The notes beneath the pieces were generated by a model, which worked only from the letters and a program-made list of their open reading frames with translations, was not told the origin of the DNA and searched no databases. Positions 400 to 15,483 of a stretch of DNA of 15,483 nucleotides are shown in pieces. Position 1 is the first letter of the stretch. Every line of letters starts with the position of its first letter. Made by a program: the position numbers and the translations under genes. Source of the stretch: Acidobacteriota bacterium (GTDB lineage: Bacteria > Acidobacteriota > UBA6911 > JACQSX01); assembly GCA_036507075.1 (NCBI GenBank), contig DASXQR010000006.1, positions 1 through 15,483 on the forward strand. Reading direction: 5' to 3'.

Positions 400-1362
400 T
401 TAGTAGTACTTCCGCAAATCCATTCCTTTGTAAAGCCCAGCCACCTGGTCGCCATAGCCGTTGAACATCAGGGTCTTGCGTTTGAAGAATTCTCCCAGGC
501 GGCGTTCCGATGCCTGGCTCCAGCGCGGATGATCGACTTCAGGATTCACGTTGGAATAAAAACCGTATTCCCGGGGAGTTGCAAGATTCCAAGTGGTGGG
601 CGGCTCCTTTTCCACAAATCGAATTTTCACCAGTGATTTGATGCTCTTGAAACCGTACTTCCAGGGGACGACTATTCTGACGGGAGCTCCGTTCTGATTG
701 GGCAAAGTCTCTCCGTACATGCCGACACAAAGAAGGGCCAGCGGATGCATGGCCTCGTCCAGACGCAACCCTTCCACGTAAGGAAAAGGAATACCTGCAT
801 AGCGCGCCTGCGGCATCTGTTTTGAGTCGAAATAGGTCTGAAAGGCGACGTATCTGGCCTTGGAATTCGGTTCGACCTGTTTGATCAAATGGCTCAGTGA
901 GTACCCGATCCACGGCACAACAATCGACCAAGCCTCGACGCAGCGGTGGCGATAAACGCGCTCCTCCAGAGGCGCGAGCTTCAAGATGGAATCCATGTCG
1001 TAGGTTTTCGGCTTATTAACAAGGCCTTCGACGGAAACGCTCCACGGAGAGGTCTTGAAGTTCTTAGCCTTCTCAGACGGATCTTCTTTGCCCGTGCCGA
1101 ATTCGTAGTAGTTGTTGTAAGTGGAAACTTTGTCGAATGGCGTCTGCTTTTCGTCGGTGCTGAACTGACCACGGGAGGAGACGTTGAGCTTGGTTCCGGC
1201 CAGGACCGAAATCTCCGGGGAAATGATCTTTACCATTTCACGAGCCGCCACCAACCCGGCGCCCGCACAACCTGCATCCTTAAGGAATTCTCGCCTGTTT
1301 ACGTAGACACTCTTAGGAGTAACTTCCGAATAAGCGACATTGTCTGGTTTTCTAATCAGCAT
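400..1362 (-). CDS. msrP: MsrP (YedY) periplasmic molybdopterin protein-methionine-sulfoxide reductase catalytic subunit
   Basis: Tat motif NRREFLK; motifs YNNYYEFG, HRCVEAWS (Mo-ligating Cys), NGAPVRIVVPWKYGFKSIK, NPEVDHPRWSQA; GAGAGG SD before the ATG. Confidence 0.97.
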   Translation of the reverse strand: MLIRKPDNVAYSEVTPKSVYVNRREFLKDAGCAGAGLVAAREMVKIISPEISVLAGTKLNVSSRGQFSTDEKQTPFDKVSTYNNYYEFGTGKEDPSEKAKNFKTSPWSVSVEGLVNKPKTYDMDSILKLAPLEERVYRHRCVEAWSIVVPWIGYSLSHLIKQVEPNSKARYVAFQTYFDSKQMPQARYAGIPFPYVEGLRLDEAMHPLALLCVGMYGETLPNQNGAPVRIVVPWKYGFKSIKSLVKIRFVEKEPPTTWNLATPREYGFYSNVNPEVDHPRWSQASERRLGEFFKRKTLMFNGYGDQVAGLYKGMDLRKYY

Positions 1363-1399
1363 ACATACCTCTCATTACTTGAGCGCCGCCATACCGTGG

Positions 1400-1572
1400 G
1401 TAAGAATTATTTCACCACAAAGACACAAAGTACACAAAGTCAGACGAGGAGCGGGCAGAGTCCGGTCACTTCTCAAAGTGAACTGTGGCGTCGTCTTCTT
1501 TGGTGACCGGGCTCTGCCTGCTCCTCGTCCCGCTTTGTGTCCTTTGTGTCTTTGTGGTGAAATAATTCTTAC
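1400..1572. repeat. Palindromic intergenic element B
   Basis: About 70-bp imperfect inverted repeat 1400-1469 / 1503-1572 (outer 31 bp perfect) with a 33-nt loop. Contains CACCACAAAGACACAAAG units. Confidence 0.95.
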
Positions 1573-1577
1573 TCCCG

Positions 1578-2609
1578 ATGAAAAAAGCTGAGCTGAAGAT
1601 TGGACTGCTGGGACTGGGCCGGCTGGGAAGAATCTACGCGGGCCAACTGGCGCGGCAGATCGCGGGGGCGCGCCTGGTCGCCGTTGCCGATCCGCTGCCG
1701 GATCGGGCAAAACAGATCGCGGAAGAATGGGGAGTGGAAAAATCCGGCAGCGATCCCCTGGGCCTGATCGACGATCCGCAGGTGGATGCGGTAGTGATCG
1801 CATCGCCCACTCACACGCATAAAGAGCTGGTGATCGCGGCAGCACGGCGAAACAAAAAGATTTTCTGCGAGAAGCCGCTCTCTCTTTCGCTGCGCGAAGC
1901 GATTGAGATAAAGGAGGCAGTGGATCACAGCGGGGCGTTTTTTCAGATGGGCCTGATGCGCCGCTTCGATCGGGGCTACGCAGCGGCAAAAAAGAGAATC
2001 GAGCAGGGCGTGATCGGAAGACCCCTGGTATTCAAGGCCAGCTCGCGCGATCCCTTCCTGCCCGCCCTCGAGTATTTGGATCCAAAGACCAGCGGCGGCA
2101 TTTTCATCGATATGGGCATTCACGATTTTGACCTGGCGCTCTGGCTCATCGGCAGGGTCCGGACGGTCACCTCCATTGGCGGCGTGCTGGCGTTTCCGCA
2201 GGTGGAGGAAATGGGTGATATCGACAATGCCATCGTAACGCTGATTTTTGAAGAGGGCCAGCTGGGCGTGGTCGATTTGAGCCGCAGCGGTCTTTACGGC
2301 TACGACATCTCAGCCGACATTCTGGGAAGCGCCGGCACGCTGCGCGTAGGTTATCTGCGTGAAACACCGGTTCTGGTGATGACTAAAGACGGGGTCGCCC
2401 ATGATGTCGTGCCTTATTTTCCGGAGCGTTTTGGCCAGGCTTACCGTGATCAATTGCAGAATTTCGTCGATAACGTCCGCGCCGGCCGCCCCGCCCCCGT
2501 AACGCTTGCAGACGGCATCGAAGCTCTGCGCGTGAGCGTGGCCGCCACAGAATCCTTTCGGACCGGCCGGCCCGTGGAGATCGCGGCAATATCCGAGCCG
2601 CGCGCGTAA
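1578..2609 (+). CDS. Gfo/Idh/MocA family NAD(P)-dependent oxidoreductase (inositol 2-dehydrogenase-like)
   Basis: Rossmann GLGRLG, CEKPL, MRRFD and GGIFIDMGIHDFD motifs; 343 aa. Confidence 0.92.
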   Translation: MKKAELKIGLLGLGRLGRIYAGQLARQIAGARLVAVADPLPDRAKQIAEEWGVEKSGSDPLGLIDDPQVDAVVIASPTHTHKELVIAAARRNKKIFCEKPLSLSLREAIEIKEAVDHSGAFFQMGLMRRFDRGYAAAKKRIEQGVIGRPLVFKASSRDPFLPALEYLDPKTSGGIFIDMGIHDFDLALWLIGRVRTVTSIGGVLAFPQVEEMGDIDNAIVTLIFEEGQLGVVDLSRSGLYGYDISADILGSAGTLRVGYLRETPVLVMTKDGVAHDVVPYFPERFGQAYRDQLQNFVDNVRAGRPAPVTLADGIEALRVSVAATESFRTGRPVEIAAISEPRA

Positions 2610-2818
2610 GCAAGCGGATTCTCCGGAGGGATAGAGGGATGGAGAGATGGAGAGATGGAGGGATGGAGGGAATGAGGGATGGAGGGAGTGAGGGAAAGAC
2701 AGTGAGTTCTGTACGGGCTTTGGCCAGCGCTCCAAAAACCCTCCCTCTTTCCGTCCCTCATTCCCTCCATCCCTCTGTCCCTCCGGAGGGTCCGCTTGCT
2801 TACGCGTGCGGTTCGGAT
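2591..2818. repeat. Composite palindromic element C (REP-like outer arms plus octamer tandem-repeat inner arms)
   Basis: Outer arms ATCCGAGCCGCGCGCGTAAGCAAGCGG (2591-2617) and the near-complement at 2792-2818. Inner 9 x GAGGGATG-like units (2626-2697) face about 5.5 complementary units (2739-2783). Overlaps the stop codon at 2607-2609. Confidence 0.93.
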
Positions 2819-2844
2819 TTCGGCGGGGATATCCGAGAGGTGTA

Positions 2845-5031
2845 ATGCTTAGATCGATAAGGACGGCCATTATTGTCTGCATTGCCCTTCTGCTTGCATC
2901 ACCCGCCGCCAGCGCAGCTCTGCCCGCAGATGGTGAAAGGCCGGTGATGCGTGCGCTGCGCGCCAGCGGTCCGATCGTCATCGATGGTGATTTGAATGAA
3001 CCGGACTGGCAGCGGGTCGAACCAGCTTCCGGCTTCATCCAGAAGATTCCGCGCACCGGGGATCCGGCCACCGAACAAACCGAAGTCAGGATCCTTTACG
3101 ACGACAACAATCTCTATCTGGGAGTCTACTGCCTGGATTCGGCCGGCTCGCGCGGGATCGTCGTCAACGACATTTCGAAAGATTTCTTCACTCTGGACAG
3201 CGACGGATTCCAGGTGGTGCTGGATACTTTCCACGACAAACGGAATTGTTTTCTCTTCGGAACCAATCCGAAGGGAGGAAAGTTTGACATGCAGATCGGG
3301 GCCGACGGCGCCGCCGGTAATACAGACTGGGACGGCATCTGGTACGTAAAGACCCGTGTTGACGAGCGCGGCTGGCAGATCGAAATGGCCATCCCGTTCA
3401 AGACACTCCGCTTTCATGAGGCCGAAGAGCAGATCTGGGGCATCAATTTTGAAAGGCGGGTGCGGCGTAAGTTCGAGGATTCATACTGGGCGGCGCTTCA
3501 GCCCCCGTATCGCGTGAGCCGCGTATCGCTTGCCGGCACGCTGCAGGGCCTCCGTGGCATAAAGCAGCCCCGCAACCTCTATGTGAAACCTTATCTGTCG
3601 GCGCCGCTGGGCCGCAAGGAAAATGACGATGTGGATTTCAATCCTGACGCCGGGTTGGACCTGAAATACGGCGTCAGTTCGCAGATGACATTCGATGCCA
3701 CTCTGAACACCGATTTTTCTCAGGTCGAGGCCGATGACGCGCAGATAAACCTGACGCGCTTCAGCCTGTTCTTTCCTGAAAAACGCGACTTCTTCCTGGA
3801 AAACGCCGGAACATTCATCTGGGGAAGGCCGAAGCGACGCCCCATGTTTGGACCGGATCGCAGCCGGCGGCTCGACCTGATTCCATTTTTCAGCCGCCGC
3901 ATCGGGCTGACCGACGATGGAGAGCTGGTCCCCATCCGCGGCGGGGCGCGGCTGACCGGGCGCGCCGGTCCGTACAACCTTGGACTGCTTTCCATGCAGA
4001 CCGGCAGGTTCGAATCGCTGCCGGAAACGAATTTCTCCGTCGTGCGGCTGCGCCGGGATCTCTCCCGGTATTCGGACGCAGGCGGAATCTTCATCAATAA
4101 ATATGAAGACGGCGGCCGATTCAATCGCACCTATGGGGCGGACACGAATCTTCGCTTCTTCCAGTATCTCGACGTCACTTCTTATCTGCTGAAGACGGAT
4201 TCGCCCGGCAAGCACGGGCGCGATCAGGCCGGGGACCTTGAAGTTTCATGGCGTGACAGCCTTTTTGATGTGCGGGCGGGACATCTCTGGATCGGGGAAA
4301 ACTTCAATCCGGAAGTGGGATTTGCTCCACGGCGCGGCATTCGCAAGACTTCCGGAGAATTCAACCTCACGCCGCGCCCCGGAGAGCGAATGGCGGCGGT
4401 GCGGGAATTTCAACCGACTGTGGAATTTGACTACATCACCGATCCGGAGGGGCGCCTGGAGACCCGGCGCCTGGAAACGCGTTTTGGCGTGCTGTTCTCC
4501 AACAGCAGCTTTGTGCTGTTCGGGCGCGAGGCAAACTTCGAGCGGCTGGATGAGCCTTTTGCAATCCGCAAGAACCAGAAAATACCGGTGGGCGATTACC
4601 GGTTTGATCAGTACTCGGCCTATTACCAGAGCGACAGAAGCCGCATTCTAAGCGCCATATTGACCGTTTCCACTGGAGGATTTTATGACGGTGACCGCGA
4701 TTCTTTGGGCGGCACTCTGGTGGTGCAGCCGGACTATCATTTTCTGGCCCGCTTTTCGTGGAATCACGACGACGTGCGGCTGCCGACTGGAAATTTCAAA
4801 ACGAATCTCCTATCGAGCCGGCTGAATTACTCGTTTACAACGAACCTGTTTCTCAGCGCCCTGATCCAGTACAACAGCGACGATCACGCCGTCACCAGCA
4901 ACATTCGCCTCAATTTTATTTACAGGCCGCTGAGTAATTTCTTTCTCGTTTATAACGAACGCCGCAGCAGCACCGGCATAGTCACCGAACGCGCGCTGAT
5001 TGCAAAGCTGACGCGGATTTTTGCATTTTGA
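2845..5031 (+). CDS. DUF5916-type protein with N-terminal CBM9-like domain; probable outer-membrane beta-barrel
   Basis: ATG 2845 with GAGAGG SD; signal peptide; IDGDLNEPDW and EMAIPFKTLRF (CBM9-like); NTDFSQVEAD and LFFPEKRDFFLE (DUF5916-like); alternating beta-strand pattern and C-terminal Phe. Confidence 0.85.
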   Translation: MLRSIRTAIIVCIALLLASPAASAALPADGERPVMRALRASGPIVIDGDLNEPDWQRVEPASGFIQKIPRTGDPATEQTEVRILYDDNNLYLGVYCLDSAGSRGIVVNDISKDFFTLDSDGFQVVLDTFHDKRNCFLFGTNPKGGKFDMQIGADGAAGNTDWDGIWYVKTRVDERGWQIEMAIPFKTLRFHEAEEQIWGINFERRVRRKFEDSYWAALQPPYRVSRVSLAGTLQGLRGIKQPRNLYVKPYLSAPLGRKENDDVDFNPDAGLDLKYGVSSQMTFDATLNTDFSQVEADDAQINLTRFSLFFPEKRDFFLENAGTFIWGRPKRRPMFGPDRSRRLDLIPFFSRRIGLTDDGELVPIRGGARLTGRAGPYNLGLLSMQTGRFESLPETNFSVVRLRRDLSRYSDAGGIFINKYEDGGRFNRTYGADTNLRFFQYLDVTSYLLKTDSPGKHGRDQAGDLEVSWRDSLFDVRAGHLWIGENFNPEVGFAPRRGIRKTSGEFNLTPRPGERMAAVREFQPTVEFDYITDPEGRLETRRLETRFGVLFSNSSFVLFGREANFERLDEPFAIRKNQKIPVGDYRFDQYSAYYQSDRSRILSAILTVSTGGFYDGDRDSLGGTLVVQPDYHFLARFSWNHDDVRLPTGNFKTNLLSSRLNYSFTTNLFLSALIQYNSDDHAVTSNIRLNFIYRPLSNFFLVYNERRSSTGIVTERALIAKLTRIFAF

Positions 5032-5096
5032 ATCTCACCACAAAGACACAAAGTGCACAAAGTTCTTCGTGGTCTTTGTGTCTTTGTGGTGAGATT
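5031..5096. repeat. Minimal palindromic element D
   Basis: Perfect 23-bp inverted repeat AATCTCACCACAAAGACACAAAG (5031-5053) / 5074-5096. Same unit sequence as elements B and F. Confidence 0.93.
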
Positions 5097-5107
5097 GACA
5101 AATTTTA

Positions 5108-5860
5108 ATGACCGAATTCCTGCTGATCTCCGCTGCCGGATTTGCCGCCGGGTTTGTCAATGCCGTCGCGGGCGGCGGGACGCTGATCACATTCCCTGCC
5201 CTGCTCTTTGGGGGCAGGAGCGCGGTGCTCGCCAACGCCACCAGCACGGTAGCCATCTGGCCCGGATCCTTGTCGAGCGTGTGGGCCTACCGCCGGCAGA
5301 TCCGAGATCGTCGCCGCGAGGCGTTCGTGCTGGCTGTTCCCTCCGTAATCGGAGGCCTGATCGGCTCGGTGCTGCTGATCTACACGCCCGAGAAAGCCTT
5401 CCGCGTCATTGTTCCTTACCTTATTCTGCTTGCCTGCGGGCTTCTTATTTTCCAGGGACGCATCGGCCGCTGGGTGGCCAGGCATATGGGACATGGCGCG
5501 GCACACGTCTCTGCTGTTCACTGGTTAGTGCAATTTTTGATTTCCATTTACGGCGGGTATTTTGGCGCGGGAATCGGAATCTTAATGCTTGCGGCCATGG
5601 CTATTTTTCTTCCCGAAGATTTGCAGTCGGCCAACGCGCTCAAGGTGTTCTTTGGAATGCTGATCAACGGCATGGCGATGCTTTACTTTGTTGTCATCGG
5701 AGCGGCCGATCTTCGCGCTGCCGGCGTGATGGCGCTGGCTTCCCTGCTTGGCGGTTACCTGGGCGCGCACACCGCGCAGCGGCTTTCACCGGCGCTGCTG
5801 CGCGCCGTCGTGGTCGCGTTCGGTCTGATCGTCGCCGTGCATCTGTTCCGCACGAACTAA
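5108..5860 (+). CDS. TauE/SafE (TSUP) family membrane transporter
   Basis: GFVNAVAGGGTLITFPAL, ANAT, YGGYFGAGIGIL and ANALK motifs; 250 aa, multi-TM. Confidence 0.93.
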   Translation: MTEFLLISAAGFAAGFVNAVAGGGTLITFPALLFGGRSAVLANATSTVAIWPGSLSSVWAYRRQIRDRRREAFVLAVPSVIGGLIGSVLLIYTPEKAFRVIVPYLILLACGLLIFQGRIGRWVARHMGHGAAHVSAVHWLVQFLISIYGGYFGAGIGILMLAAMAIFLPEDLQSANALKVFFGMLINGMAMLYFVVIGAADLRAAGVMALASLLGGYLGAHTAQRLSPALLRAVVVAFGLIVAVHLFRTN

Positions 5861-5862
5861 AT

Positions 5863-5944
5863 TCGAAAGTCGAGGGTCGAACGTTGAAAGTCGAAGGTCG
5901 AAAGTCGAAGGAGGTCCTGACTTTGGACTTTCTGACTTTCCGAC
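5863..5944. repeat. Heptamer tandem repeat with degenerate inverted arm (element E)
   Basis: 7 x TCGAAAG-like units at 5863-5911, then GACTTT-containing complementary units at 5919-5944. Confidence 0.85.
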
Positions 5945-6069
5945 AAGATGCCACAAAGACCGTTGACCAGTGACTCATGACGGAAGACAAAACTTTCTTC
6001 CCCCTCACCGAAAAAAATGAGATATTACGCAAACCCTTTCAAACACATCGGTCTGCAAAAGGAGATCGT

Positions 6070-6597
6070 ATGAAAAAGTGCGCGTTTTTAATCATCCTGT
6101 CCGCCCTGACTGTCTGTTTTGTATACGCTCCTCCACCTGCTGCCACACACGTGGTGGTCAGGGCTGATCAGATAAAGTGGGGGTCCGCACCCCCGACTCT
6201 GCCGGCCGGGGCTCAAATGACGGTGCTATCCGGTGACCCGTCAAAACCGGGACTTTTCACCATCAGATTGAAAGCACCTGACGGATTCAAAGTCGCTCCC
6301 CATTGGCATCCGACGGCCGAAAACCTGACGGTTCTTCAGGGGAGATTTGGCATTGGAACCGGCGATAAGTTCGATCCCAGGCCGGAAAACGAACTGACCA
6401 CCGGCAGTTTCACCATGATGCCGGCCAAAATGCATCACTTTGCCTGGACAAGAGGGGAGACCGTGGTGCAGGTCAGCGCCATGGGCCCGTTCAAACTCAT
6501 CTATGTAAATCCGGCCGACAATCCCAATAAGCCACCCGTCAAGCCGGCAAAGGCGGCAACCGAGAAACCGAAACCCAAGGCAAAAACGGGCTACTGA
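6070..6597 (+). CDS. Secreted cupin-domain protein (DUF4437-like) with Lys/Pro/Ala-rich tail
   Basis: ATG 6070 with AAGGAG SD; signal peptide MKKCAFLIILSAL; cupin motifs PHWHPTAE and MPAKMHHFA; GDPSKPG. Confidence 0.85.
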   Translation: MKKCAFLIILSALTVCFVYAPPPAATHVVVRADQIKWGSAPPTLPAGAQMTVLSGDPSKPGLFTIRLKAPDGFKVAPHWHPTAENLTVLQGRFGIGTGDKFDPRPENELTTGSFTMMPAKMHHFAWTRGETVVQVSAMGPFKLIYVNPADNPNKPPVKPAKAATEKPKPKAKTGY

Positions 6598-6607
6598 TTT
6601 GAATGAA

Positions 6608-6659
6608 AAGCTTGGTGCCTTGGTGGTTCAATGCATTCAACCGCCAGGACACCGGGCTT
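6608..6659. repeat. Short imperfect hairpin of the same repeat family with arms in reversed order
   Basis: AAGCTTGGTGCCTTGGTGGTT (6608-6628) pairs with AACCGCCAGGACACCGGGCTT (6639-6659), using 4 G-T pairs and 1 C-A mismatch. Confidence 0.75.
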
Positions 6660-6679
6660 GCAACAGGTAGGAGGCGTAA

Positions 6680-7576
6680 ATGAAAACTCGAGTACCGCAT
6701 CTACTCTGGGTCCTACCGATCCTTCTCTTGGTTTTCCATCTTCCCGCACCTTCCGCTGCAGCGGCGGAAAAGATCAACATCATTGCCATCGGCGCGCATC
6801 CGGACGACTGTGACAACCGTGCCGGAGGCGTGGCCGCCAAGTGGGCGGCGCTCGGGCATCGCGTTCGATTCGTCGCGGTTACAAACGGAGACGCGGGACA
6901 TCAGAAGGAGGGCGGGTCTGCTCTGGCGCGCCGCCGCGAAGCGGAGGCCAAGGAAGCAGCACGCCGAATCGGGATCGAATACGTGGTCCTGAACAACCAC
7001 GATGGAAAACTTCTGCCCACGTTGGAAGTGCGCGAGCAGGTGATTCGCCAGATCCGCCAGGCCAACGCAGACCTGGTGCTGGCGCCGCGGCCAAATGATT
7101 ACCATCCCGATCACCGCTACACCGGAGTGCTGGTTCAGGATGCAGCCTACATGGTGACGGTGCCCAATATTTGTCCCGATACTCCGGCGCTGCGAAAGAA
7201 TCCGGTCTTCATGTACTTTCAGGACGGCTTCCAGAGGCCCAATCCCTTTTCTCCCGATGTGGCCGTTTCGCTGGACGATGTGATCGAAAAGAAATACGAC
7301 ATGCTCGACGCGCATGTCTCGCAGATGTACGAGTGGCTCGCCTGGCACGCAGGACTTCTCGACCAGGTCCCCAAAGACGCCAAGGCGCGCAGGGAGTGGC
7401 TCAAAACGCAGCGCCGCTACGAACCAACTCCGGCCGTGCGCCAGTCGTTGATCAAGTGGTACGGCCCGGACCGGGGCGGCAATATCAAATATGCCGAAGC
7501 CTTTGAGGTCTGTGAATACGGCACCCGGCCCACGACGGAAGACATTCGCCGCCTGTTTCCGTTCTTCCCGCGCTGA
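6680..7576 (+). CDS. PIG-L/LmbE family deacetylase with signal peptide
   Basis: GAHPDD, TNGDAG, RRxxEA, DYHPDH and YAEAF motifs; AGGAGG SD; hydrophobic N-terminus ending in AAAA. Confidence 0.92.
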   Translation: MKTRVPHLLWVLPILLLVFHLPAPSAAAAEKINIIAIGAHPDDCDNRAGGVAAKWAALGHRVRFVAVTNGDAGHQKEGGSALARRREAEAKEAARRIGIEYVVLNNHDGKLLPTLEVREQVIRQIRQANADLVLAPRPNDYHPDHRYTGVLVQDAAYMVTVPNICPDTPALRKNPVFMYFQDGFQRPNPFSPDVAVSLDDVIEKKYDMLDAHVSQMYEWLAWHAGLLDQVPKDAKARREWLKTQRRYEPTPAVRQSLIKWYGPDRGGNIKYAEAFEVCEYGTRPTTEDIRRLFPFFPR

Positions 7577-7579
7577 TCC

Positions 7580-7641
7580 GCGTCCATCTGCGGCCCAAAT
7601 TCGCGCCACCGGCGTTCATCTGCGGCCGCGGCTGCGGCCGC
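7580..7641. repeat. Direct repeat plus GC-rich hairpin between convergent genes
   Basis: GCGT(C/T)CATCTGCGGCC at 7580-7595 and 7612-7627. GCGGCCGC at 7622-7629 and 7634-7641 can pair. Confidence 0.6.
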
Positions 7642-7652
7642 GACCCCAATAC

Positions 7653-9965
7653 TTATTTCAGGACCTTCCCGTCCACGGCGATCCGCAGCTCGAACTTGTC
7701 CTCCACACTGGGCACGAAAAATCCGTGCACGACGGCAAGCCAGTTCCCGGCTCTGGGATCCTTGATCGACGTCGCTTCGGGATTGTTCAAAGTAGCGCCA
7801 TCGACATCGAGGTGGCCGTTCGGATCGATCAGGATCAGATCAATATCATTTGACGGATAGGATCCCCAGTCTTGGCGCCAACCGAGCCGAGCGTCAAGCT
7901 TCAACGCGCCCGCGCTGACCTGAAAGGGCACGACCCTGATCTCGCCATCCAGCAGCCTTCCCTGCGAAGTAAATTGAGGGGCCGGATCCGTCACCGAAAA
8001 GATATTGACCGTTGCGCCTACCGAACTGGCATTGGTCCAGTCTCCGTTGACGCTGACACGCATCAGCCCTGTTTCCGGATTGGGCACCACAAAGGTTCCG
8101 CCTTTGGTAAACTCAAATACCCGGTAATCTCCTTCATCGATCGCGGAGGTCTTGGCGCTGTGAACGGTCAGCAGAATGTCATCCCCGAAAAGAGTGTTCT
8201 GGTTTGCGCCCGTGATCAGGTTTGACAGGCTCACAATCACAGCCGTCGTGTTAGGGTGCACGTGATAATAAATCTCCACCCTTTGCCCCGGCAGCAATCC
8301 CTGTATTACTTGAGTGACGTTTCCGTTCAGCGTCGGCACGCCGGCGGCCTGCAGGATGTTGACGTTGACGTTGGTATTGCCGACGCCGGCTGCTCCAAAA
8401 GTGTCCGGCACTCCGCCGGCCTGAAGCAGGGAGAGAGCACCGGCTGCGTTGACGTAGCCGCTGCCTCGATCAAGCGGCCCGGATCCATCTGTAATCAGAC
8501 CGGGTTTGGCGCTGGCGATCAACGCATTCCTAACCTGCCGGGCGGTCGCTCCCGGCGCTGCCTGGCGAAGAACAGCGGCCACTCCGGCGACAGTCGGGCC
8601 ACTGAAGCTGGTGCCGCTGGCCATGTTGACGACGTTTGTGGAAGAGGAGAAGCCCTGACCAAAGCTGCCAAAACCATTTGCCATCACGTCTGGATCTATA
8701 CGGCCGTCGGCGGTCGGACCGCGCGAGCTGAAATACGCCGTTTGTGTTCGATCGGACGGCCTGAACAATTCCCCAATACCAAGGACACCAAAGTTCAGGT
8801 CCCAGAAGACTCTCTCGTGTACGGGTGAAGAGCTCGCGCCGACTGTGAGCGCGTCGAATCCTGTCGCCGGGCTGGCCCCCGTCGTTCCGCTCGGGCCGGC
8901 GTTTCCGGCGCTCACTACCAGGACGATGTCATGCTCGAGGAACGCTCGAGTCAATTTATCTTCCAGGTCATGACCGGCAAAGATCGTGGAGCCGCCAAGA
9001 CTCATGTTGCAGACCTTAATATTGAGCGCGGTGTATTTTCCACTCGCATCCTTGGTTTCAGGCAATCCGCTGTCAAAGTTCTCGCGCAACTGCAAGACCC
9101 GTTCCATGGCCGCGATGACCCGGGAGGTCGGGGCGCCGCCGGCCGGCGGGAAAACCCGCAGAGCGTAAATGCTCGAAAGAGGAGCCGAACCGATCATGGG
9201 CACACGTGTAGACGTAGAATTTGGGACGGTCTCAACGCACGCGTCGCAGTACTTCTTTAGCGATTTAACCAGGAGCCTCGAGTTTGGAAATGTAAATACC
9301 ACATTGGCGGAAATCATTCCTGCGACGAAGGTCCCATGTCCGTCGTTGGCGATGTTACTGAATCCGAGGCCATCGCCCACCAGGTCTTCTCCACCGATCA
9401 CCGAGCCGTCGAGACTGAGATGAGGGCGCCCGGGGCGTATCCCCGAATCGATGACCGCCACCTTCACTCCCTGGCCTGTGAAACCGGCGGCATGGACCGA
9501 ACCGAGATTCAGAGAAGTGTTGTTGATGAGATAAGCGTCCGGGCTGGAATCAGTAATGGCGGCCAGTTCGCCGGCTGACAGGCTTTCAACCTCGGCGCTT
9601 TCCTCGCTGGCCAGAAGCCGGGTTCCGCTCCGCCGGTCGAGGGCCGCTTGCGGCAGGTTAACCATCAAGTCCTTCGAAACGCATCCGGCGGGCAGCAGTG
9701 CGCGAATGGCGCTCATCGCGTCATCGGGAATTTCCGCTGCAATCGCCTCAATGTAGCGAAATTGATGCGTCACCTTGCCACCGCGCTGCTCAATGGCGGT
9801 GACAACTTTGGAATAAGGCTTGGCTGTTCGAATAAGAACCGCGGCGCCCTGAGTGTAGGGGCTCAAAGCGATGACAGACAAGGCATTCAAAAGCGCTTGT
9901 CGCAGCCGCCATTTCCGACGACTGCCACTTGTCGCAGAAACATCAGTACCTCTGGTTTTACCCAT
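7653..9965 (-). CDS. S8 family (subtilisin-like) serine peptidase with prodomain and C-terminal PPC-like beta domains
   Basis: Triad motifs VAVIDSG, HGTFVAG and SGTSFSGPTVAG; oxyanion SAGN; SSRGPTADGRIDPD. Start taken at ATG 9965 (GGGG SD); the ORF track extends to 10034. Confidence 0.93.
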   Translation of the reverse strand: MGKTRGTDVSATSGSRRKWRLRQALLNALSVIALSPYTQGAAVLIRTAKPYSKVVTAIEQRGGKVTHQFRYIEAIAAEIPDDAMSAIRALLPAGCVSKDLMVNLPQAALDRRSGTRLLASEESAEVESLSAGELAAITDSSPDAYLINNTSLNLGSVHAAGFTGQGVKVAVIDSGIRPGRPHLSLDGSVIGGEDLVGDGLGFSNIANDGHGTFVAGMISANVVFTFPNSRLLVKSLKKYCDACVETVPNSTSTRVPMIGSAPLSSIYALRVFPPAGGAPTSRVIAAMERVLQLRENFDSGLPETKDASGKYTALNIKVCNMSLGGSTIFAGHDLEDKLTRAFLEHDIVLVVSAGNAGPSGTTGASPATGFDALTVGASSSPVHERVFWDLNFGVLGIGELFRPSDRTQTAYFSSRGPTADGRIDPDVMANGFGSFGQGFSSSTNVVNMASGTSFSGPTVAGVAAVLRQAAPGATARQVRNALIASAKPGLITDGSGPLDRGSGYVNAAGALSLLQAGGVPDTFGAAGVGNTNVNVNILQAAGVPTLNGNVTQVIQGLLPGQRVEIYYHVHPNTTAVIVSLSNLITGANQNTLFGDDILLTVHSAKTSAIDEGDYRVFEFTKGGTFVVPNPETGLMRVSVNGDWTNASSVGATVNIFSVTDPAPQFTSQGRLLDGEIRVVPFQVSAGALKLDARLGWRQDWGSYPSNDIDLILIDPNGHLDVDGATLNNPEATSIKDPRAGNWLAVVHGFFVPSVEDKFELRIAVDGKVLK

Positions 9966-10152
9966 AAATCCCCCTGAAAATTCAACTGTTTGCGAGACAC
10001 TTCTGTCGACAGCACCAATTGACTGCTGACGCAATCAGTTGTTGGCGATCATTACCGTTTCGGGTGCACGCCCACCGCCAGGCTTGAAGGTGACGACAGT
10101 TGCGAATGCGAATAATTCAAACCTGACCGGAAGATAAAGATCAGTGCAAAAG

Positions 10153-10353
10153 TCAACGGCTGACCGCGAACTCCTCTCTAGGAATAGCAAGCCAGAGAAT
10201 AAGGTAAGGGATTACACCGGGTAGTCCGCCGGGGAGAATGAGGAAGAAAAAACCGAGCCGGACCCAGAAACTTCGGATCTCGTAATACTCTGCGATGCCG
10301 CCGCAGACACCTGCCAGGTAGCGGTTTCGGGCGCTTCTTCTTAGTTTTTTCAT
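10153..10353 (-). CDS. PspC-domain membrane protein
   Basis: MKKLRRSARNRYLAGVCGGIAEYY...VRL...YLILWLAIP is the PspC signature; ATG 10353 with AGGGGTG SD; 66 aa. Confidence 0.92.
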   Translation of the reverse strand: MKKLRRSARNRYLAGVCGGIAEYYEIRSFWVRLGFFFLILPGGLPGVIPYLILWLAIPREEFAVSR

Positions 10354-10374
10354 ATCACCCCTGTCTTCTGTAAC

Positions 10375-10400
10375 TACGCGTCCGGACTCTCTAAAGTTCC
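10375..10400 (-). promoter_or_regulatory. Putative ECF sigma-factor promoter for the PspC-domain gene
   Basis: Minus strand reads GGAAC (10400-10396)-N17-CGTA (10378-10375), ending 21 nt before the ATG. This fits the AAC...CGT ECF consensus. Confidence 0.55.
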
Positions 10401-10493
10401 GGAACCTCACCCGAAAAATTCCACCCTTGTTTAATTATAGCGAAGCCGCAAAGAAGGGGGGCCGACTCAGGTCGAGTTTGTGCTGCCTGTCGA

Positions 10494-10623
10494 GGAAAAC
10501 TTCACCCACAAAGACACAAGTGGGGCAGGCAGAGGCCGGTCATCTGTCCAAAGGCGAACGCGGCGGTTTTGAAGCTGACCGGCCTCTGCCTGCCCCATTT
10601 GTGTCTTTGTGGTGAAGTTTTCC
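10494..10623. repeat. Palindromic intergenic element F (same family as B)
   Basis: About 48-bp inverted repeat 10494-10542 / 10576-10623 (one bulge, one G-T) with a 33-nt loop. Has CACAAAGACACAA units and the inner GCAGGCAGAGGCCGGTCA module. Confidence 0.95.
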
Positions 10624-10638
10624 GTGGCTTCTGATTTT

Positions 10639-11706
10639 TCACACCTTCTCTCTTTCCGGAAACTCCCCCGGCATCACAGACAACTCAATTTTTTCCGGCC
10701 CTCGAATCACAACCAGCGGGGTTCTTGCGCCCACACGCTCATCGCTGAGCAGCTTGTGCAAGTCGTCAATACCTGCCACCGGCTGCCCGGCGAAATTCAC
10801 GATGATATCGCCTGCGGTAATGCCCGTCTTTTGAGCGGGGCTGTCCGGTTCAGTTGAGACCACCATGATGCCGCTTTCGCGCGTCAAACCATGAAAGCGC
10901 ACGATCCGGCGGTGAAGGGGCACGTTTTGTCCCGCCATTCCAATGTAGCTGCGGCGGATCTTGCCGTCCTTGATCAGGCGGCCGGCGACGAACTTGGCCG
11001 TGTTGATCGCGATGGCAAAACAGATGCCCTGCGCGGGAAAAATCACAGCCGTGTTGACTCCAATCACCTCGCCCCGGGAATTAACCAGAGGACCGCCCGA
11101 ATTTCCGGGATTCAGCGCCGCATCGGTCTGGATTACGTCGTCAATTAATCGGCCCGAACCGGTCCTGAGCGAGCGGCCCAGCGCGCTGGTCACTCCGGCT
11201 GTCACGCTGCACTGAAAGCTGTACGGGTTGCCGATCGCTATTACAAGCTGGCCCACCCGGATCTTCTGCGAATCTCCCATCAGCGCGGGAGTCAGCGCCG
11301 GTGCGCTTATTCTCACCACCGCCAGATCGGTGTGTGGATCGTCTCCCACCAGGTCTGCCTGCCAGGATCGCCCGTCCGTCAGAGTCACACGGATCCAGGT
11401 TGCGTTATGGACCACATGACTGTTGGTTAGAATAAATCCGTCCGGGGTGAACACGAACCCCGATCCGCTCCCGCCCCGCTCGCGTTGAGACGGTCGCCGG
11501 CTCGTTTCTCCATCCCGGCCTGCCTGCCGGACCTCGATATTGACGACCGAAGGGCTCACCTTTTCAGCGGCCGAAATAACCGCCTGCGAATACGCGTCCA
11601 GAAGATCGTCATCAAATCCCGCCGGTTGCGTCCCCGCATGCTCCGGCCCCGCGTGCAAAGGCTCATTCGCCGCCAACCTCATTTCGGCACTGCTCCTGCG
11701 CTTCAT
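10639..11706 (-). CDS. HtrA/DegP-like S1C serine protease with single PDZ domain
   Basis: GSGSGF, TNSHVV, DLAVVRI and IQTDAALNPGNSGGPL; C-terminal PDZ (SPAQKTGITAGDII). ATG 11706 has an AAAGGTGG SD; the ORF track starts at 11715. Confidence 0.95.
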   Translation of the reverse strand: MKRRSSAEMRLAANEPLHAGPEHAGTQPAGFDDDLLDAYSQAVISAAEKVSPSVVNIEVRQAGRDGETSRRPSQRERGGSGSGFVFTPDGFILTNSHVVHNATWIRVTLTDGRSWQADLVGDDPHTDLAVVRISAPALTPALMGDSQKIRVGQLVIAIGNPYSFQCSVTAGVTSALGRSLRTGSGRLIDDVIQTDAALNPGNSGGPLVNSRGEVIGVNTAVIFPAQGICFAIAINTAKFVAGRLIKDGKIRRSYIGMAGQNVPLHRRIVRFHGLTRESGIMVVSTEPDSPAQKTGITAGDIIVNFAGQPVAGIDDLHKLLSDERVGARTPLVVIRGPEKIELSVMPGEFPEREKV

Positions 11707-11749
11707 TGAATCCACCTTTCAATTCATTGGTTTGCGGAGTTGCAAAGAG

Positions 11750-11983
11750 TCCACCACAGAGACACGGAGGACACAGAAAGACAGCGAGAGATGGCCAAAA
11801 GTTCCCTGTGCCCCCCTGTACTACTAACCATGAGAATTTTCGCGGCCCGCGCAAATTATTCGGGAGCGGAGAGACGGCCTGCGGGCCGTCTCAGCTTGGC
11901 AGAACACCGCAGAGAGACGGCCCTCAGGCCGTCTCTCCTTGACTTTTGGTTGCGGCTTCGCCGCGCTAAGCCTCTGTGGTGGA
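11750..11983. repeat. Palindromic element G, right arm interrupted by an insert
   Basis: TCCACCACAGAG (11750-11761) pairs with CTCTGTGGTGGA (11972-11983). The rest of the right arm (CTGTGCCCCCCTGT, 11806-11819) lies 150 bp further left. Confidence 0.8.
11820..11969. mobile_element. Putative 150-bp non-autonomous insertion with sub-terminal hairpins, carrying a REP-like doublet
   Basis: Removing it restores the right arm of element G. Hairpins at 11835-11857 and 11952-11964; no terminal IR or target duplication visible; internal inverted 25-mers at 11868-11892 / 11914-11938. Confidence 0.6.
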
Positions 11984-12084
11984 TCTTTTACACGTTCGAC
12001 GGCTCTGCCCACCATGTCCTAATCTGGATTCATAACATCCCGGAACTCATCATGCAAAGCAGGGGGAAATCTGGTGGCGGCCCA

Positions 12085-13919: not shown

Positions 13920-15224
13920 ATGAGATCCACGCATAGCAGCGATCGAATCTTGAAAGTCGCAACTTTAATATTATTGTCGGCGCTTATGGTTGCGGGGCTG
14001 GCACGTTTGTTCCGAAGTGCGGTAACGGCCTCGCCCGTAAGCTTTCATTCCAAAGTGGGGGTTTTCGATCCGCAGGATGCCGAGAAATATTTATTCGTCT
14101 GGGCGGGCGATCAGGCCCGCACCGCGGCTGATTTCCTGGCCGTGGTCAATTTCGATGAAGGTTCGCCGCAGTACGGTAAGGTGTTAGGCGTCAGTCCGGT
14201 TCCAGGTTCCGGCAACAGCGGCAATGAGCCTCACCATGTGGGCCTCTCCAGTGATGGGCGCGTGCTGGCCTGCGGCGGACTGCTGAGCGTGCTGAAGGGG
14301 CAGAAGGAGATATTTTTCTACGACGTCTCCAATCCCTCCTTCCCGCAATTCATTTCTTCTGCGGACCCTCCGCAGTCGGCAATTACGGATGAATTCTACC
14401 CGCTGGCCGATGGGGGATTCCTGGTGACCATGATGGGAGGGCCGCAGGGACATCATCCTGGAAGAATCGCCGAGTTTGATAAGAATCTGCAACTGGTTGC
14501 AGAGTATCCAGAGGTTCCCCCGCAGGATGGGTTCAATCCTCACGGGATCTCAGTCAGACCGGAGATCAATCTGATGGTCACCAGCGATTTCGTTTGTCCT
14601 TCGACCACGCTGCACGCCGTGCCCGGCAGCTTGGATCTTCGCGGGAGTATTCGCGTGTGGAATTTCAAAAAGAGAAAGATTGTTCAGACCATCAAGCTTC
14701 CCACGCCGGCCGGCACCATCGACGTGAAGCTGATCCCGGGAGACAAAAAAGGCCGCGCTTACACGGCGGGAATGGCGGATGATCGGCTTTACTTGATCGA
14801 CCCGGAAGCAGGCACCGCCAAAGCCGTGTTCGATTTTTCTCTGATTGCAAAAGGAGGATTCCCTCAGTTGATGCGCACTACCCGGGATGGTCAGAGGCTG
14901 TTTGTTTCGATGAATGCCGCCGGCAGAGTAGCCATGTTTGACACGTCAAGACCCGCAAGGCCGCGACTGCTGAGTGTTCTCGATCTGGGGCCGAATTCCG
15001 GACCGCACTACATCGCACTGACCGAGGACGAAAAGCGCCTGGTGATTACGGACTACTTCCTGAATGAGGACGACTTTGGAAAAGTTCACGCCGAGGGAGA
15101 CCATCGTGTCCACGTCGCCAGGGTCTCAGCCGAAAAACTGGAGCTGGATCCGAAATTCCAGCTCGACTTCAACACCGCATTCAACGGCAGACCGACGCGC
15201 CCTCACGGGGTAGCTTTCAAGTGA
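13920..15224 (+). CDS. Selenium-binding protein (SBP56)-like exported beta-propeller protein
   Basis: AGGAGG SD; N-terminal hydrophobic segment; DFLAVV, YGKV, NEPHH, NPHG, GPHY and RPHG motifs; repeating beta-blade pattern. Confidence 0.75.
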   Translation: MRSTHSSDRILKVATLILLSALMVAGLARLFRSAVTASPVSFHSKVGVFDPQDAEKYLFVWAGDQARTAADFLAVVNFDEGSPQYGKVLGVSPVPGSGNSGNEPHHVGLSSDGRVLACGGLLSVLKGQKEIFFYDVSNPSFPQFISSADPPQSAITDEFYPLADGGFLVTMMGGPQGHHPGRIAEFDKNLQLVAEYPEVPPQDGFNPHGISVRPEINLMVTSDFVCPSTTLHAVPGSLDLRGSIRVWNFKKRKIVQTIKLPTPAGTIDVKLIPGDKKGRAYTAGMADDRLYLIDPEAGTAKAVFDFSLIAKGGFPQLMRTTRDGQRLFVSMNAAGRVAMFDTSRPARPRLLSVLDLGPNSGPHYIALTEDEKRLVITDYFLNEDDFGKVHAEGDHRVHVARVSAEKLELDPKFQLDFNTAFNGRPTRPHGVAFK

Positions 15225-15315: not shown

Positions 15316-15439
15316 GCCACGAAGGCACGAAGATCTAAACTGATCTTACAGTGCTACTTTTAGGAACGTGATAGTGGATTTCGTAATGTGTCACTTCAGG
15401 ATAACCACGGAAACCTTCGTGTCTTCGTGCCTTCGTGGC
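15316..15439. repeat. Palindromic element H
   Basis: Perfect 18-bp IR GCCACGAAGGCACGAAGA (15316-15333) / 15422-15439 made of octamer units, enclosing an 88-nt AT-richer interior. Confidence 0.88.
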
Positions 15440-15483
15440 AGCTCGTGGACATGGATGGCTTTGAAAAACTTTGGCAAAAAAAA

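Follow-up and report, generated by a model that had tools for sequence, protein, structure and literature searches.

We analysed two long hairpins, elements B and F, in a 15,483-nt stretch of DNA from an Acidobacteriota bacterium (assembly GCA_036507075.1, contig DASXQR010000006.1; "the window" in the following), which is the entire contig C6 of a 6.1-Mb genome assembled in 233 contigs at 96 % completeness. B and F are probably old, decayed copies of a composite non-autonomous transposon, a MITE (miniature inverted-repeat transposable element) of about 225 bp. Their family has three nested layers: terminal repeats of the IS630 type on the outside, inverted 9-mer arrays of the kind seen in GxxExxY cassettes in the middle and a core hairpin inside. 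Both elements are real hairpins (B: 1395-1577; F: about 10494-10623), with folds at z = -17.9 and -12.9, respectively, and not one of 200 shuffles was as good in either case. The inner arms, which fold without an internal hairpin, and the loops of 35 and 33 nt are as an earlier note on this DNA had described them (Table 1).

A profile built from 59 two-armed copies located the core module at 73 loci in the genome, B and F being two of them, so that the further copies which the earlier note had asked for do exist. The copies are intergenic, non-coding and dispersed, with a core of about 95 nt (a 26-bp stem and a loop of 32-39 nt in 55 of 56 copies) and a total size of about 150-225 bp. At least one 9-mer array flanks the module at 72 of the 73 loci, and at the last one both arrays are interrupted by other insertions. 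After exclusion of three gapped copies, the remaining 56 two-armed copies were used for subfamily and arm counts and fell into a B-type (35 copies) and an F-type (21 copies) subfamily. The stem position at which B carries T-G and F carries G-C had been taken as a compensatory base pair. It is a subfamily marker instead: T-A is found in 25 and G-C in 24 of the 59 copies, T-G occurs only in B and is a one-sided decay of T-A. B does have a private compensatory pair elsewhere, namely A-T at 1450/1522, where 54 of the 59 copies have G-C.

Beyond this genome, the two-arm pattern matched none of 40 relatives and gave no metagenome match, and a covariance model found nothing in four genomes of the same family (102 candidates scored per genome). 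Single-arm matches (4 genomic, 22 metagenomic and 1 viral) were judged to be chance, as they were accompanied neither by arrays nor by a partner arm. Among the one-armed copies there was no autonomous form carrying a gene in its loop, and none of the 14 one-armed or interrupted copies inspected by eye leads into a transposase-like gene. In four public DNA runs compared with positions 420-2580, no read spans the stretch. One of these runs, which may be the source, matches 1401-1552 without differences, and module-skipping joints stem from other array hairpins.

The most direct evidence on the history of the stems comes from the way in which their arms change. Over 1344 arm positions in the 56 copies, with the two marker columns left out, 56 changes are mirrored in the opposite arm, 3 positions are changed differently on the two sides and 85 are changed on one side. 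Permuting the partners within subfamilies gave a mean of 6.6 mirrored changes and a maximum of 16 in 2000 permutations. The mirrored changes comprise 28 distinct variants, 15 of which were found once. In 22 aligned copies, the stem is 97.8 % paired and double changes occur at 16 of 27 pairs, a score that 0 of 500 shuffles reached. Furthermore, F lacks 17 nt from both arms at the same place (38/38 instead of the modal 55/55), a mirrored deletion that cannot easily be obtained by stepwise compensation. A small asymmetric bulge outside the inner arms serves as a polarity marker: among 31 copies in which the orientation of the loop is firm and both bulges could be typed, 21 show the ancestral arrangement, 4 have an inverted loop and 6 have homogenised bulges, the other 28 copies being weak or untyped in these features. 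Mirroring also extends weakly into the flanks (p 0.017). Taken together, the arms are homogenised within each copy and the loops are sometimes inverted, which bears out the suggestion of the earlier note that one arm is copied onto the other.

Template switching is reported to homogenise arms (PMC5941160), to invert spacers (PMC8604942) and to mimic compensatory change (PMC8794818), and homogenised arms, extended arms and inverted spacers are all described as its products (also PMC13100816). The matching of the arms is likely the result of polymerase template switching or of recombination between the arms during host replication and not of selection on an RNA fold; inter-arm recombination would leave the same traces. 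The quasipalindrome mutagenesis of these papers shares arm homogenisation, arm extension and spacer inversion with our copies, but it is a mutational process of the host without an element, whereas here it is seen across dozens of paralogous copies in one genome.

The outer layer was recognised from two recurrent flanks outside the arrays, the family flanks. With a pattern derived from these flanks, IS630 elements, either intact or with frameshifts, were detected in relatives of the class: family flank A shares 24 of 28 terminal bases with one such element, and a second one shares 18 of 22 bases with a flank (NF033545 elements). An end resembling these terminal repeats is present in 20 of 57 filled hairpins, 8 of 86 empty ones and 1 of 41 hairpins with another module, against a background of 0.2 %. 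Intact ends start with YTAG, a feature which the search pattern required. Minimal MITEs of 50-60 bp, consisting of the two ends alone, are present both in this genome and in that of a relative. Ends of this same IS630 type carry hairpins resembling repetitive extragenic palindromes (REPs) in genome G279 (loci L251, L255 and L257) and form a 49-bp minimal MITE in genome G327 (L252). We consider it probable that the unit owes its spread to an IS630 transposase provided in trans.

In B, 14 of the 15 array-adjoining bases of the right flank are identical to family flank A, and they are mirrored on the left. The flanks are complementary within each element, as had been noted, but that of B is a remnant of the family flank rather than a distinct piece of DNA. 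With IS630-type MITEs such as RUP of Streptococcus pneumoniae (with IS630-Spn1), Correia/NEMIS and ERIC, the B/F family shares non-coding, dispersed and intergenic copies, terminal repeats that match an IS630 element, a long stem-loop and apparently TA at the termini, as far as these are described in the passages of PMC2229807. It differs from them in its three nested layers of apparently unrelated origin and its GC-rich core, as well as in terminal repeats that are mostly lost and a cognate transposase that was not found in the genome.

Under our own pairing rule, the 9-mer arrays of the middle layer make up at least 264 inverted pairs at distances of up to 3 kb, some of which are chance neighbours. 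One pair encloses a truncated PD-(D/E)XK gene of the GxxExxY type (contig C152:81056-81340; L006), whose reading frame has its start within the left array and is truncated by the right one; the arrays around this gene (TIGR04256/PF13366) are the same as those of the B/F family. The papers on GxxExxY that our search listed do not deal with repeats, as judged by title or abstract. The module itself showed no resemblance to a GxxExxY remnant by eye in the array frame and is too short for a translated search. Inserts of 95-125 nt bounded by such arrays occur in 16 of 401 genomes of a phylum sample, this genome included. Inverted tandem arrays of short repeats in intergenic gaps are known from Xanthomonas and Geobacter, where passages of two papers describe them without a mechanism and without an inner module, IS ends or a link to a nuclease (PMC4692102, PMC2700814). 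Element D, which to the earlier note looked like the empty version, has the arrays without the module or a remnant of it, and this reading is partly right. Module remnants are kept by 6 of 97 short array hairpins (control 0), so some empty elements are deletion products; most of the short hairpins, D among these, bear no trace of the family flanks.

For the core hairpin, the covariance model matched 2 of the 40 relatives, in each case an array-free hairpin with an IS91-family transposase on one side and the element's conserved end on the other. The same position was matched in 12 of 30 IS91 loci of the class, plus one short hairpin. A sequence-only profile made from seven of the IS91 hairpins returned module copies as 18 of its top 19 matches in the genome, and single arms of module and IS91 hairpin share exact matches of 20 and 18 nt that include the polarity bulge, compared to at most 10 nt in a control family. 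Based on these similarities of sequence and position, the core was likely captured from the hairpin that lies between transposase stop codon and conserved end in a clade of the IS91 family. As an alternative, the hairpin could be a separate small repeat nested in both places. IS91-family rolling-circle elements (NF033538) have a hairpin of similar geometry and partly identical sequence at this position, and oriIS of IS91 lies downstream of the gene according to a passage in PMC5737581. The module is the hairpin only, without end motif or transposase, and therefore no IS91 non-autonomous derivative in the usual sense. Within the IS91 clade the hairpin between transposase stop and element end is long; its arms differ between subclades with pairing kept, and the loop of L173 is inverted relative to the other six of its subclade. 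It is possibly an undescribed feature of the ori side.

These layers can be combined into one course of events. An IS91 hairpin would have been captured into an array hairpin, the array hairpin with its core would then have been carried inside an IS630 MITE, and this MITE would have spread with the help of an IS630 transposase in trans before it decayed, while template switching in the host kept each stem matched. As a whole we regard this sequence of capture, carriage, spread, decay and stem matching as the probable one. Several observations weigh against it. Both terminal repeats are kept in only 2 of 57 copies, and only 31 of 110 filled ends score at least 17/29 against the family flanks, a value also reached by 13 of 172 empty ends and by 3 of 1000 random stretches. 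B and F keep neither terminal repeat, which means that the spread of many copies may not have involved IS630 ends. An IS630 gene above cut-off was not found in this assembly but is present in relatives of the class, and a first scan found no transposase with matching TAGTAC ends inside the genome. The link to IS91 is statistically modest (best E 0.006); the seven training hairpins had been preselected by the first model, and palindromes count each match twice. No IS91 end motif was found near any module, the 12 loose matches in the genome all lying more than 18 kb from a module or on another contig, and no match to the cognate IS91 transposase was obtained in this genome, where 2 fragments of another Y2 type are present. 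Finally, divergence between copies is 7 % in the arms and 19 % in the loops, about 2.7 times slower in the arms. Neutral copying from arm to arm does not by itself predict slower arms; a contribution must come from stem selection, from conversion among copies or from the arm-based search.

A population resembling REP doublets forming hairpins (REPINs) would explain the slower arms. Here the array-bounded hairpin itself would replicate, with or without a previous IS630 phase, after recognition by a GxxExxY nuclease or by a Y1 transposase akin to the REP-associated tyrosine transposases (RAYTs); only intact stems would replicate while loops drift, which would account for an identity to consensus of 93 % in the arms and 81 % in the loops (39 copies). 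Like REPINs with their RAYT (Bertels and Rainey, 2011), the family has arms more conserved than the spacer, spacers that are all different and compensatory changes, as passages of PMC3116915 and PMC3337134 report. The IS630 flank is missing at most ends, and the genome holds 6 GxxExxY and 12 Y1 matches; one truncated GxxExxY gene lies in the same arrays. On the other hand, the inner arms lack the internal palindrome of a REP, and a DDE element is what the outer ends match. None of the 12 Y1 matches has the module on its flanks within 330 nt, nor do these arrays border any Y1 gene, each of which has repeats of its own. The filled ends are moreover shifted as a whole towards the family flank, with a mode of 13-14/29 compared to 11 for random sequence, which suggests gradual decay and not a sharp array-bounded insertion. 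Nothing indicates that GxxExxY proteins mobilise DNA. We therefore regard such a population as unlikely.

Co-option by the host of an element that had arrived as described above, in which the stems would be kept as bidirectional stabilisers of mRNA ends, as terminators or as sites for RNase III or DNA cruciforms, appears improbable. The copies do lie close behind stop codons, at a median distance of 25 nt for the 36 co-directional cases, and are found between convergent genes in 13 of 57 cases, compared to 582 of 3240 background gaps, and MITE stem-loops of Neisseria have been proposed as RNase III targets in a passage of PMC2229807. B, in addition, occupies about 183 bp of the 215-bp divergent gap between msrP and the IolG-like gene (1363-1577) and thus most of a divergent promoter region; any promoters in the gap must overlap B. 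Neither a sigma-70 consensus promoter nor an intrinsic terminator was found at B. The element ends just before the IolG-like start codon, where no ribosome-binding site is evident. In none of three full-length msrP orthologues of the family was the element seen upstream, and their upstream DNA could not be aligned for an empty-site comparison. On the transcribed strand of the co-directional cases, defined by gene calls from our own open reading frame caller, the G·U bias expected of a selected sense-strand fold is absent (G·T 72, A·C 73).

The same tests speak against a functional RNA. The earlier note had proposed a structured DNA/RNA cargo with a protein-recognised loop; in such a model, a conserved loop motif could also serve as a guide. 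In favour of this model are the strong covariation of the stem described above, the narrow range of loop lengths, the presence of AAAG in 40 of 59 loops (CAAAG in 24) and a stretch of B-type loops resembling a loop of the sister family (see below) in another genus: the best 12-mer reaches at least 10 matches in 9 of 39 loops, compared to about 3 % of shuffles. The stem covariation is equally a product of copying at the DNA level. The loop motif is indeed present in both B and F, but in its full form it occurs in no other of the 59 copies, and the two loops are 43 % identical, with 40 % for shuffled loops. No two of the 59 loops are identical, and the loops, the most diverged part of the element, fold no better than shuffles and have no shared helix, with the possible exception of a 5-bp helix on one strand of one subfamily. 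On the strand defined by the loop, G·T (26) and A·C (28) are balanced, and the loop points with transcription in 17 and against it in 19 cases. Two further possibilities, loops acting as CRISPR-like spacers or guides and hypermutation as in diversity-generating retroelements, were rejected: matches in the masked genome did not exceed those of shuffles, and there is no A bias. An Rfam search of the window gave 46 weak hairpin matches, none of them at gathering score, and thus no known family for the module. With neither a G·U strand bias nor a fixed loop orientation nor a conserved loop with a shared fold, there is no support for a functional RNA or for a recognised loop, and the model of the earlier note is very improbable. 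The loop is a passive spacer, and "cargo" is right only if it means passenger DNA within a MITE; the B/F family is probably selfish repeat DNA and not a functional RNA.

Table 1. Features of elements B, D and F, their neighbouring genes, and the IS91 hairpin and DNA-uptake loci discussed in the text
Feature	Position or loci	Strand	Remark
B left flank	1398..1412	.	mirror of right flank; arm-to-arm copying reaching past the arrays
B left 9-mer array	1413..1439	+	three units; arm type that also encloses GxxExxY genes
B left inner arm	1443..1468	+	T-A-marker subfamily; private A (1450) paired with T (1522)
B loop	1469..1503	+	35 nt, unpaired, diverging freely
B right inner arm	1504..1529	-	G at 1511 causes the single T-G mismatch
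B right 9-mer array	1533..1559	-	
B right flank	1560..1574	-	inner remnant of family flank A; outer IS630-like terminal repeat gone
D, array-only hairpin	5032..5095	.	without module and without recognisable family flank
F left flank remnant and shortened array	10494..10520	+	left half of the 17-nt mirrored deletion
F left inner arm	10521..10542	+	G-C-marker subfamily, closest to IS91 hairpin
F loop	10543..10575	+	33 nt
F right inner arm	10576..10597	-	pairs with left inner arm
F right shortened array and flank remnant	10598..10623	-	
msrP	400..1362	-	neighbour of B, outside the element; NF003767 above cut-off
IolG-like inositol dehydrogenase gene	1578..2609	+	neighbour of B, start codon right after it; TIGR04380 352.8 bits, cut-off 355
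PspC-domain protein gene	10153..10353	-	neighbour of F; below cut-off
HtrA-like protease gene	10639..11715	-	neighbour of F; stop codon 16 nt from it
IS91 hairpin loci	L173, L174, L176, L178-L181, L183-L185, L192, L199		
13 uptake/recombination loci	L070-L082		contigs C45, C111, C208, C23, C17, C100, C124, C187, C110, C73, C28

The window contains several other elements of related architecture. Element A (about 196-411) belongs to a sister family of 29 copies with the same layout of shell, array and core around a different core. Its ends are IS1380 terminal repeats, and a direct repeat of the 4 bases next to them on the outside is present in 11 of 16 elements, in 5 of these in non-palindromic form. 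A genome of a sister genus (G003) holds a young version of this family, in which the 12 loops are nearly identical; loops are thus not diversified at birth, and the B/F family is simply older. An array hairpin at 15316-15440 has a third type of core, whose two short palindromic boxes are separated by some 20 nt; 41 hairpins of this type were counted, with strongly mirrored flanks. At 11748-11985 an array hairpin is interrupted by another non-coding insert with REP-like palindromes, and the same insert also interrupts the arrays of B/F-type copies on contigs C159, C187 and C216. Inverted 8-mer and inverted 7-mer arrays lie at 2584-2825 and 5866-5945, respectively, and elsewhere in the genome four-helix-bundle genes are bordered by various kinds of 7-mer array. 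A methanethiol-oxidase-like gene of the selenium-binding family, far below the NCBIfam cut-off, occupies 13920-15224.

A further link concerns the genes of the repeat-associated cassettes. The motif TTTCGCAGATTT-N10-CAGTTATGT is present upstream of all 19 cassette genes used as seeds, and a genome scan with it gave 62 matches. Among 20 selected downstream proteins that were scanned, 6 had no family, 1 was a GGDEF regulator and 13 belonged to DNA uptake and recombination: ComEA-like helix-hairpin-helix (HhH) protein, RecA, SSB, pseudopilin, ComM-like protein, RecG, ComEC, RadC, RecQ, ComF-like protein, DprA, UvrD and ERCC4, the Com names being our reading of Pfam domains. A matrix built from these 13 loci alone scored above 20 bits upstream of 5 of 6 GxxExxY, 10 of 12 Y1 and 6 of 7 four-helix-bundle genes, that is, 21 of 25 cassette genes compared to 43 of 4720 genes overall; since the 13 were first found with a matrix seeded by the cassettes, the independence of this test is not complete. 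Of 5 close relatives, 2 genomes of the same family show the motif again, where the 10 scanned downstream proteins comprised 5 Y1 proteins (one just under the cut-off), one four-helix bundle, one HhH protein, one pseudopilin and 2 unassigned ones. The B/F module or its flank is not a copy of the uptake promoter (best 14.2 bits, median -13.9).

A promoter-like motif shared by cassette and DNA-uptake genes is well supported by these data and suggests that the cassettes may be expressed together with competence; what the motif does and how hairpins would be mobilised, we infer. A shared motif is not reported in the titles and abstracts listed by our searches, which cover few subscription journals, and the passages of PMC3686654 and PMC7494812 contain nothing on a link to competence. 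It is doubtful that the array-bounded hairpin still replicates and is moved by GxxExxY nucleases, with the cassettes forming one guild of repeat-flanked elements that all use the uptake promoter. If this were true, GxxExxY, RAYT-like Y1 and four-helix-bundle cassettes would act as single-stranded DNA is taken up in natural transformation and hairpins can fold, and the IS ends and the IS91 hairpin would be passengers swapped among array-bounded units.

For the B/F family, the results point to a MITE apparently assembled from an IS630 end, the arms of a GxxExxY cassette and an IS91 hairpin, and otherwise to ordinary selfish DNA. Such a composite is not described in the titles, abstracts and passages that our literature search covered; the Geobacter repeat alignments, published in supplements, could bear on the arrays. 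As the B/F shell has IS630 ends and that of the sister family IS1380 ends, shells and cores seem to be interchangeable. The family also carries a warning for the discovery of RNA motifs: 16 of 27 pairs covary and no shuffle equals this, yet the strand tests favour copying at the DNA level. The upstream motif, with homologues of comEA, comEC, comF, comM, dprA, recA and ssb as its partners, provides a testable handle on the role and the timing of the GxxExxY, four-helix-bundle and RAYT-like genes.

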